From a virus (Duplodnaviria > Heunggongvirae > Uroviricota > Caudoviricetes), in the IMG/VR virus record IMGVR_UViG_2541047689_000008: DNA of 32,756 nucleotides; one strand, written 5' to 3'. Positions 18,627 through 19,515 of the stretch are shown one piece after another. Numbering within the stretch: the first letter of the stretch is position 1; every line of letters starts with the position of its first letter. The translations under genes were made by a program, and so were the position numbers. The notes under the pieces are model-generated. The model was not told the origin of the DNA and made no database searches. It worked only from the letters and a program-made list of their open reading frames with translations.

Positions 18627-18660
18627 AAAGCACAAAACCCGCTCATCAGCGGGTTTTCTA
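18627..18660. terminator. Bidirectional intrinsic terminator (candidate tR' for the Q-dependent late promoter; also ends cspF)
   Basis: AAAACCCGC-TCATCA-GCGGGTTTT hairpin with T-rich tracts on both sides. Confidence 0.6.
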
Positions 18661-18702
18661 CTTTTTCTTAACGTCGGGTATACAAAGCCCATCATTGAAA
18701 AA

Positions 18703-18731
18703 ATTTTATCCATATTTTTTGAAAAATGCAA
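18703..18731 (-). promoter_or_regulatory. Candidate late promoter PR' just downstream of Q
   Basis: On the - strand: TTGCAT (18731..18726), 17 nt spacer, TAAAAT (18708..18703). About 35 nt after the Q stop and about 45 nt before the terminator hairpin. Confidence 0.5.
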
Positions 18732-18762
18732 ACATCATGTCGCCATCTTCAGCAAAAATCAT

Positions 18763-19515
18763 TTATCTCGTCACCTTCCTCAATTGCGCTTCCGCGTATG
18801 CTTCTTCCTGCCAGCACTTTGTTACCAGTTTACCAATGACGTCCGCATACCCCTTATACCACTGATAATCGGTCAGGTCTGGTACCAGCTTCTGGACATG
18901 ACGTCGTGCCAGCGTGGTCGGTAAACGACTAAACCGGTTTCCATTACAACGCCCACAAATCTTATATACCGGTACGCCATGAAACCGGGTTCTTTTTTCA
19001 TCCAGAACAATCCCTTTACCCTTACACCCTCTGCACGCTGTGCTGACTTCGCCCTTACCATGGCAATGCTGACATAGTTCCTTCACCCATTCTTCCTTGA
19101 TTACAGATTCCCCGCGTCTGTAGTGTTTCACCACTTCGCGCAATACATTATAAAATCCCGTACCTGAACAATGCTCACAGCGAGCCTTACTTGCCGCAGA
19201 CCTGGAGTAATCAGCAAAGGCAAAACTCACGAGGTAAGGAATAATCTGTAACCGGATTTCTTCACTCAATTTGTTCAATGTCGGGTTATCCAGTGCCATC
19301 GCGTAATTGAGCAGACCTTCAATCGCAAACTGAGGATCCTGAACACCAACTTTTGCCAGGAATAAGGCAAAACCAAGCGGAGCTTTCGACTGCACCATCC
19401 CCTGCGCAGCCATCACATCTGTTATTGTTAAACCACCCGAGCCTGTCGCCGGTGCGTCATCACTCAATTTTGGAGATTTTGGGGAGTAATATTTTGGTAA
19501 AGCTTCAAGGTTCAT
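18763..19515 (-). CDS. Late-gene antitermination protein Q
   Basis: 250 aa with Cys-rich zinc-binding clusters (CEHCSGTG...CQHCHGKGE...CRGCKGKG...CGRCNGN). Position between the nin-like region and the lysis genes. Resembles Qin QuuQ (recalled). Confidence 0.82.
   Translation of the reverse strand: MNLEALPKYYSPKSPKLSDDAPATGSGGLTITDVMAAQGMVQSKAPLGFALFLAKVGVQDPQFAIEGLLNYAMALDNPTLNKLSEEIRLQIIPYLVSFAFADYSRSAASKARCEHCSGTGFYNVLREVVKHYRRGESVIKEEWVKELCQHCHGKGEVSTACRGCKGKGIVLDEKRTRFHGVPVYKICGRCNGNRFSRLPTTLARRHVQKLVPDLTDYQWYKGYADVIGKLVTKCWQEEAYAEAQLRKVTR

Follow-up and report, generated by a model that had tools for sequence, protein, structure and literature searches.

The DNA analysed here is a stretch of 32,756 nucleotides (nt) from a Caudoviricetes virus (IMG/VR record IMGVR_UViG_2541047689_000008), referred to below as the window, and the subject of this work is the segment at positions 18627-18765, which follows the gene of the antiterminator Q on the minus strand. 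Together with Q, this segment very probably forms the late-gene control unit of a lambdoid prophage of the Qin type, orthologous to the Q/PR'/qut/6S/tR' unit of phage lambda. A unit of the PR'/6S/tR' type had been proposed earlier from the DNA letters (the original prediction), and it is borne out by a Q of the lambda-Q family, a promoter in register with lambda PR', a pause element, a terminator hairpin and, in Escherichia coli K-12, two ends and the size of the RNA made from the site. The unit is an ordinary lambdoid late-gene switch, the Qin-type member of the lambda-Q family of PR'/tR' units, and its RNA product had already been detected twice in K-12, where it was not recognised as the leader of a late promoter. 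The elements of the unit are the following:

18763..19515, minus strand: antiterminator gene Q (ydfT/quuQ), 250 amino acids, lambda-Q family (Pfam, BLASTP, PDB, RefSeq)
18726..18731, minus strand: -35 hexamer TTGCAT of PR', in register with lambda TTGACT and unchanged in 11 of 12 aligned homologues
18709..18725, minus strand: 17-nt spacer TTTTCAAAAAATATGGA, putative Q-binding element (qut/QBE), identical to the lambda spacer at 11 of 17 positions
18703..18708, minus strand: -10 hexamer TAAAAT of PR' (lambda TAAATT in the same register; TAAAAT or TAAGAT in relatives)
18688..18696, minus strand: predicted +1 (A18696), beginning the -10-like pause element AATGAT and GGG discriminator, +1 to +9
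18630..18696, minus strand: 67-nt leader RNA, counterpart of K-12 ECS025 and of lambda 6S RNA (ECS025, northern and Term-seq)
18627..18657, minus strand: intrinsic terminator tR', with stem 18657-18634, GC core 18653-18638 and loop GAUG, then UUUUGUGCUUU
18634..18657, plus strand: the same hairpin followed by UUUUCUACUUUUU, a possible cspF-ynfS terminator (scan and fold)

An E. coli prophage of the lambdoid Qin type, adjoining rspB, makes up the whole window. It contains an integrase, dicA/dicC/DicF, hokD/sok, ydfU, Q, csp genes, a lysis cassette, a terminase and head and tail genes, and is a fuller prophage than the cryptic K-12 Qin. A 3-kb stretch around the promoter and terminator is 100% identical to E. 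coli chromosomes, where the RefSeq labels are ydfT (antitermination protein), cspF, cspB, ynfU and essD/essQ. All RNA data discussed here come from K-12. Across 18627-18765 the K-12 coordinate equals the window coordinate plus 1,623,726, as checked by gap-free alignment, and 138 of 139 bases are identical, the single difference being at 18694 (leader +3), T in the window and C in K-12. An open reading frame (ORF) of 51 amino acids at 18576-18731, annotated as hypothetical in PhiR42_1, overlaps both promoter and terminator and is regarded as spurious.

The gene directly upstream of the promoter, on the same strand, encodes a member of the lambda-Q family, with its stop codon TAA at 18765-18763. 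It matches Pfam PF03589 (E 6.6e-54), lambda Q over its full length (34% identity, E 9e-41, BLASTP) and PDB 7UBM (E 2.8e-36), and is annotated in RefSeq as an antitermination protein. PF03589 is the lambda-Q family, separate from Q21 (PF06530) and Q82 (PF06323) (PMC9388147), and lambda, not phage 82, is therefore the right comparison. A phage 82-like Q with a pause at +25 was ruled out, since the protein matches PF03589 and neither PF06323 nor PF06530.

The Q stop, the promoter and the hairpin were found where the original prediction had placed them. The -35 lies 31 nt after the Q stop and the -10 lies 45 nt before the hairpin, in agreement with the predicted distances of about 35 and 45 nt. 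Its description of the promoter as near-consensus holds for the -10 (TAAAAT, 5/6) and fails for the -35 (TTGCAT against TTGACA, 3/6), the overall match being 8-9/12; a promoter scan picked up the site only in the shifted register TTTGCA-18-TAAAAT (9/12). The hexamers alone are no evidence for a promoter. Its significance rests on the gapless homology to lambda PR' including AAYGATGGG, on conservation among phages and on the published K-12 RNA ends.

Lambda PR' (NC_001416) aligns to the locus gap-free; 31 of the 44 bases between -35 and +9 are identical, distributed as 4/6 in the -35, 11/17 in the spacer, 5/6 in the -10, 3/6 from -6 to -1 and 8/9 from +1 to +9, and the match drops to 3/16 past +9. 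The block from +1 to +9 reads AATGATGGG in the window and AACGATGGG in lambda, K-12 Qin and most related phages, so that K-12 Qin matches lambda at 9 of 9 positions. In lambda this block is a sigma-dependent pause element with a GGG discriminator at +7-9 (PMC5001585), and the 32.7-kb window matches AAYGATGGG at 18696-18688 and nowhere else. The base at +3 is C in K-12 Qin, lambda, P22 and most phages, and T in the window and in a decayed copy of phage PhiR63_1; with T (AATGAT against AACGAT) the pause element rises from 3/6 to 4/6 of TATAAT. The lambda QBE lies within the spacer between -35 and -10 (PMC9388147, PMC6266700), and at this locus the spacer, nearly unchanged among Qin-type phages, is a putative Q-binding element.

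The RNA of the unit was identified in K-12 under another name. In the sequencing of RNAs shorter than 200 nt by Shinhara et al. 2011, ECS025 was listed as a novel prophage small RNA (sRNA) candidate at 1640387-1640446 (older coordinates) on the minus strand, described as "IGR, Prophage (Qin/Kim)" (IGR, intergenic region) and mapped as 60 nt (PMC3175480). Its sequence is AACGAUGGGCUUUGUAUACCCGACGUUAAGAAAAAGUAGAAAACCCGCUGAUGAGCGGGU, which starts with AACGAUGGG (PMC3175480), and the first base coincides with the predicted +1 (window 18696, K-12 1642422 on the minus strand). A start at about 18696 on the minus strand was the point to which the original prediction had tied its fate, and the ECS025 edge falls on the homologous base, as a read boundary and not as a proven triphosphate end. 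A sigma-70 promoter just downstream of Q probably fires in K-12, as the upstream edge of ECS025 at the predicted +1 indicates. On northern blots the band was of about 65 nt in total and in low-molecular-weight RNA; the level rose 2-3-fold on cold shock and was unaffected by mitomycin C or ultraviolet light (UV), that is, by SOS induction (PMC3175480). Indifference to mitomycin C and UV is as expected of a constitutive PR'.

The downstream end comes from the Term-seq of Adams et al. 2021, where an orphan 3' end was mapped at K-12 1642356 on the minus strand, equivalent to window 18630 (PMC7815308). In a table of three growth conditions this coordinate occurs three times, two of the entries scoring 103591 and 55368 (PMC7815308). 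The end lies 8 nt past the GC stem. The ECS025 5' edge and this 3' end therefore delimit an RNA of 67 nt, which falls within the 60-70 nt foreseen for a terminated transcript and stands beside the northern band of about 65 nt. Antitermination, lambda and late genes are not mentioned in the text of the ECS025 paper (PMC3175480); neither that text nor the Term-seq tables link the RNA or its 3' end to late transcription, and the sequence records consulted for the locus carry no promoter or terminator annotation at the site. A literature search for a Qin PR' found nothing. The present reading gives ECS025 and the orphan 3' end one mechanistic identity, that of the Qin late-promoter leader, and leaves the textbook picture unchanged.

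The terminator of the unit is the hairpin AAAACCCGCU-GAUG-AGCGGGUUUU at 18657-18634, followed by GUGCUUU, with the trailing TTTTGTGCTTT ending at 18627. It lies 106 nt past the Q stop and folds on the minus strand with -23.9 kcal/mol (z = -8.6; none of 200 shuffles folded as well). It is retained in all 8 aligned sequence variants with a double change in only 1 of 10 pairs, so the support is of retention and not of covariation. SfV and Ayreon carry a terminator annotation at the homologous site.

An A-tract precedes the symmetrical hairpin and a U-tract follows it, so that both strands read as a hairpin plus a U-run. On the plus strand, where 293 nt with ynfS among them separate it from the cspF stop, it was flagged by the terminator scan and folds with -15.1 kcal/mol (z -6.5), and it is structurally plausible that it would also terminate cspF(-ynfS), as originally proposed. 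Phages with a convergent cspF have AGAAAA ahead of the stem and SfV-type phages without cspF have UUUAAGAA, which would yield a poorer plus-strand U-run and lends small support to the plus-strand role. Two curated Term-seq tables contain no plus-strand 3' end between K-12 1641634 and 1644572, a result that is uninformative because cspF expression under those conditions was not checked.

The module of Q, promoter, leader and hairpin was identified at 87-98% nucleotide identity in 35 phage records, and in most of them homology stops at query position 887, which corresponds to window 18634, where the base pairing of the hairpin ends. The aligned sequences hardly vary in the -35, the spacer, the -10 and the stretch from +1 to about +17; the rest of the leader diverges, and every aligned variant keeps a GC hairpin and a U-run. 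The same layout was found directly after Q in 8 of 11 sampled phages of the lambda-Q family (including lambda, P22, Gifsy-2, HK225, YeP1, SfV and sal3), and consists of a -10, 6-7 nt, AA[C/T/G]GATGG[G/A] and, 30-50 nt further on, a terminator. Leaders in this family are as a rule short, the 194-nt 6S RNA of lambda being the exception. The unit of Q, promoter and terminator is also present in phages without a convergent cspF, namely SfV, Ayreon, mEp460 and Stx2c phages.

On these grounds the following course of events is proposed. The constitutive sigma-70 promoter TTGCAT-17-TAAAAT would initiate at A18696 on the minus strand and, without Q, the polymerase would halt at the hairpin 18657-18634 and free the 67-nt RNA ending at C18630. 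The AATGAT-GGG block at +1 to +9 would mimic a -10 and discriminator, and retained sigma-70 would re-bind there and cause a promoter-proximal pause, which in lambda occurs at about +16/+17. Upon induction, Q would be made, bind between the -35 and -10 and load onto the paused polymerase, making it resistant to terminators. The modified polymerase would then cross tR', the antisense genes ynfS and cspF, cspB with its terminator and the antisense ynfU, and would reach the genes of holin, endolysin and spanin and then the structural genes. Sigma-dependent pausing, binding of Q and Q-dependent read-through are predictions; the homology and the hairpin are shown, as are, in K-12, the two ends and the size of the RNA.

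Several points weigh against this reading. The RNA data belong to the K-12 copy, with C at +3, and not to the window copy, with T. The 5' end of ECS025 is where mapped reads begin and is of class B, that is, with predicted-promoter support only. No entry for the site was found, in either coordinate version, in the supplements of Cappable-seq (PMC4782308) and SMRT-Cappable-seq (PMC6131387), which may be incomplete or use other coordinates; the RNET-seq supplement (PMC7876045), possibly incomplete too, holds no entry for the site coordinates or gene names and is uninformative. Promoter-like sites occur in the region at chance frequency (11 seen, 8.7 +/- 3.6 expected from shuffles), and the hexamers by themselves therefore prove nothing. 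The U-tract (UUUUGUGC) is weaker than in SfV-type phages. The C16-G17 pause dinucleotide of lambda is not conserved, and the exact pause position is therefore uncertain. A second orphan Term-seq 3' end was mapped in one K-12 condition at 1642188 (window 18462), 168 nt downstream of tR', and adjoins a weak AT-rich hairpin (CUGCUUAUUAUAUUAUUAGCAG, z -1.2), the two lying within 18462-18500 on the minus strand; it suggests either read-through of tR' or the product of a promoter-like site at 18506-18477. Finally, positions -6 to -1 are TGACTC in lambda and TTTTTC at the locus, which has no -35-like TTGACT by its pause element. Work of Nickels and Hochschild reportedly placed such an element one base upstream of the lambda pause element. 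It is retained in P22 and absent in Gifsy-2, HK225 and YeP1, and is therefore not family-wide.

The first alternative is that ECS025 is a stand-alone sRNA gene acting in trans like StxS or IsrK, any antitermination role being secondary or lost. It draws on an RNA that is abundant, discrete and constitutive in K-12 and rises on cold shock, on a unit that is intact although K-12 Qin is defective, and on precedents for PR'-tR' leaders acting as sRNAs, such as StxS (PMC7547250) and IsrK of Gifsy-1, which is encoded downstream of a Q-like gene (PMC4825925). Against it, conservation peaks in the promoter, the QBE and the pause element and falls past about +17, the pattern of a DNA control site and not of an RNA seed. 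The RNA has a short U-tract, the sRNAs named as reduced in the hfq mutant are others and do not include ECS025 (PMC3175480), and the leader shows no complementarity of at least 10 nt to other RNAs in the window except to terminator stems. Rfam returned nothing over threshold at the locus; an isrK match covers the leader exactly (18.8 bits against a cut-off of 50, E 0.04-0.09) and was rejected as hairpin-driven, being no better than those of the Phe, Trp and Thr leader models, and the Gifsy-2 leader has no isrK match. The alternative is improbable, and it is compatible with the late-promoter leader. There is also a slight chance that the 67-nt leader, besides belonging to a late-gene switch, was co-opted as a regulatory RNA like StxS or IsrK, with leaky or Q-driven read-through of tR' yielding RNA antisense to cspF/ynfS and so tying the prophage state to csp expression; the hints are the cold-shock rise in K-12 and a position next to three prophage cold-shock genes.

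The second alternative, that the hairpin merely ends the early-right (Q) operon and cspF-ynfS, the hexamers being due to chance and the RNA a stable 3' fragment of the Q mRNA, could appeal to the closeness of the symmetrical hairpin to the Q stop, to the chance frequency of promoter-like sites and to a 5' end known as a read edge and not as a primary end, but it is very improbable, since that edge falls exactly 7 nt past the -10 and at the start of AAYGATGGG, the promoter core is conserved across phages including lambda and P22, where it is an experimentally defined late promoter, the unit persists in the phages without convergent cspF, and the curated Term-seq has no plus-strand 3' end at the hairpin.

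The late-gene unit of the window and that of lambda share a PF03589 Q and a promoter that follows Q directly, in the same orientation and with an identical -35/17 nt/-10 register. In both, a -10-like pause element and its GGG occupy +1 to +9, a short terminated RNA is made constitutively and the lysis genes come first among the late genes. The unit of the window differs in the leader (67 nt here, 194 nt in lambda), in a spacer/QBE deviating at 6 of 17 positions and in the lack of a TTGACT-type element at -7 to -2 (TTTTTC here). The gap from tR' to the holin is about 400 nt in lambda; here four foreign genes, three of them oppositely oriented, take up about 1.8 kb between the two, and the holin is of the S21 type. 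The Qin-type Q also differs from lambda Q by an insertion of about 40-48 amino acids within the zinc-ribbon arm (Q residues ~121-170, window ~19006-19155, minus strand), which brings two extra CxxCxGxG motifs for a total of four (Pfam DnaJ_CXXCXGXG, E 8e-9). The zinc-ribbon arm of lambda Q contacts QBE positions 11-13 (PMC9388147). With the same pause element, no -35-like element and an enlarged zinc arm of Q, the Qin-type unit is a natural variant of that of lambda and a possible comparison case for Q loading.

Another closely related known system is gene 23/P late/t late of P22, also with a lambda-family Q and a short leader, its terminator being annotated at +31 to +59. The P22 record NC_002371.2 annotates P late/PR', a qut-like site, the +1 and t late/tR', and its start reads AACGATGG. 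The P22 promoter region is near-identical to that of lambda, whereas the Qin-type spacer is its own, and the P22 holin lies within about 300 nt with no genes between. K-12 ECS025 is the same RNA from the orthologous Qin locus, different in the base at +3 and in having been reported as a novel prophage sRNA. The PR'-tR' unit of Stx phages (StxS, PMC7547250) is alike in carrying cargo between tR' and the lysis cassette that depends on Q read-through, and in a leader that is constitutive in lysogens. It differs in that StxS comes from Stx1 and Stx2a phages, with a Q933 of low amino-acid identity to other Q alleles (PMC6266700); StxS is an Hfq-binding RNA that RNase E processes (PMC7547250), whereas ECS025 was not reported as Hfq-dependent.

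The path from tR' to the lysis genes comprises the following features:

18396..18485, plus strand: ynfS, a small ORF antisense to late transcription (K-12 annotation and RefSeq of the identical genome)
18129..18341, plus strand: cspF, antisense to late transcription (Pfam CSD E 5.6e-22; annotation)
17597..17989, minus strand: cspB (coding sequence 17613-17828) with a cspA-type 5' untranslated region (UTR) thermoregulator (Rfam RF01766, 158.8 bits; Pfam CSD E 9.8e-32)
17312..17331, minus strand: cspB terminator hairpin in the path of the late operon, its plus strand serving ynfU (scan and fold)
17079..17249, plus strand: ynfU, antisense to late transcription (Pfam YnfU E 4.7e-31; annotation)
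15310..16859, minus strand: lysis cassette with S21-type holin essQ (16644-16859), ydfR, endolysin rrrQ and spanin rzpQ (Pfam and annotation)

The order from tR' is ynfS (plus), cspF (plus), cspB (minus), ynfU (plus) and holin (minus), from which it follows, as originally proposed, that the late path crosses antisense cspF and then cspB and its terminator before the holin at 16859. The pinholin announced there is an S21-type holin (Pfam Phage_holin_2_1, P21 holin S, PF04971, E 4.4e-34), and the cassette also contains DUF1327 and Phage_lysozyme (E 9.4e-24). The holin ATG (16859) is 1,903 nt from the Q stop, in accordance with the 1.9 kb estimated before, and the U-tract ends 1,767 nt ahead of it. 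The description of this interval as morons agrees with cspB having its own cspA-type 5' UTR and its own terminator and with a slot content that varies among related phages. Within the late-operon path cspB is a self-contained transcription unit. In K-12 Term-seq the plus-strand 3' end 1641060 carries the sequence of the 17312-17331 hairpin (PMC7815308).

The same csp cassette was identified between tR' and the holin in the phage genomes PhiR42_1, Tritos and 2H10, and the arrangement is therefore compatible with a working late operon. This slot is a classic site of cargo genes in lambdoid phages (PMC7873438, PMC6266700). Elsewhere it is occupied by a methylase and small ORFs (SfV, Ayreon and mEp460), by other ORFs (sal3 and F1055) and, in Stx2c phages, by a lipoprotein-like ORF, a methylase, tRNA-Met, tRNA-Arg and stx2cAB.

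The Qin-type Q-PR'-tR' module was found at about 91% nucleotide identity in 15 records of Stx2c-converting phages. In one of them, LC727876.1, the module is followed by a lipoprotein-like ORF, a DNA methylase, tRNA-Met, tRNA-Arg and stx2cA/B. The expression of stx2c in these phages should depend on the Qin-type module, and the present work defines the module driving stx2c in the 15 matched records, which bears on toxin yield.

Other arrangements were observed in a few phages. PhiR63_1 has a degenerate copy of promoter, leader and terminator right after Q (~3290-3400 of the record; -10 AAAGAG, AATGATGAG) and an intact copy identical to Qin 1.7 kb downstream (~4950-5090 of the record), preceded by a decayed remnant of a Q 3' end; the intact second copy would be consistent with selection to keep a cognate promoter. 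HannyBb, with two matching places, apparently has the same two-copy arrangement. The Salmonella phage SEN22 and the Erwinia phage vB_EhrS_49, whose lambda-Q-family proteins are about 41-42% identical to the Q of the window, have no AAYGATGGG in the 100 nt after Q and share TAACA[G/C]TAGAAATCCGT ahead of the terminator, which may be a different pause or Q-loading element. Neither AAYGATGGG nor the TAACA-type motif was found after Q in the Klebsiella phage ST16-OXA48phi5.3.

Two further observations concern the cold-shock genes. Downstream of cspB, K-12 Term-seq contains a very strong orphan 3' end at 1641224/1641226 on the minus strand (scores 604404 and 1233565; window 17498-17500), which falls on the ATG of an unannotated ORF of 11 codons (MKQWPAYLAKS, ~17468-17501) with AAGGAGG ahead of it. 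This ATG (17498-17500) is 113 nt downstream of the cspB stop, with no terminator hairpin evident in the sequence just upstream, and at the cspB terminator (17331-17312) the two curated Term-seq tables list no 3' end on the minus strand. On the other side, just past the lysis cassette, cspI has in front of it a further thermoregulator 5' UTR of the cspA type (RF01766, 112.8 bits; 14702-15087, minus strand), and cold-shock cassettes therefore stand on both sides of the lysis genes in the late operon.

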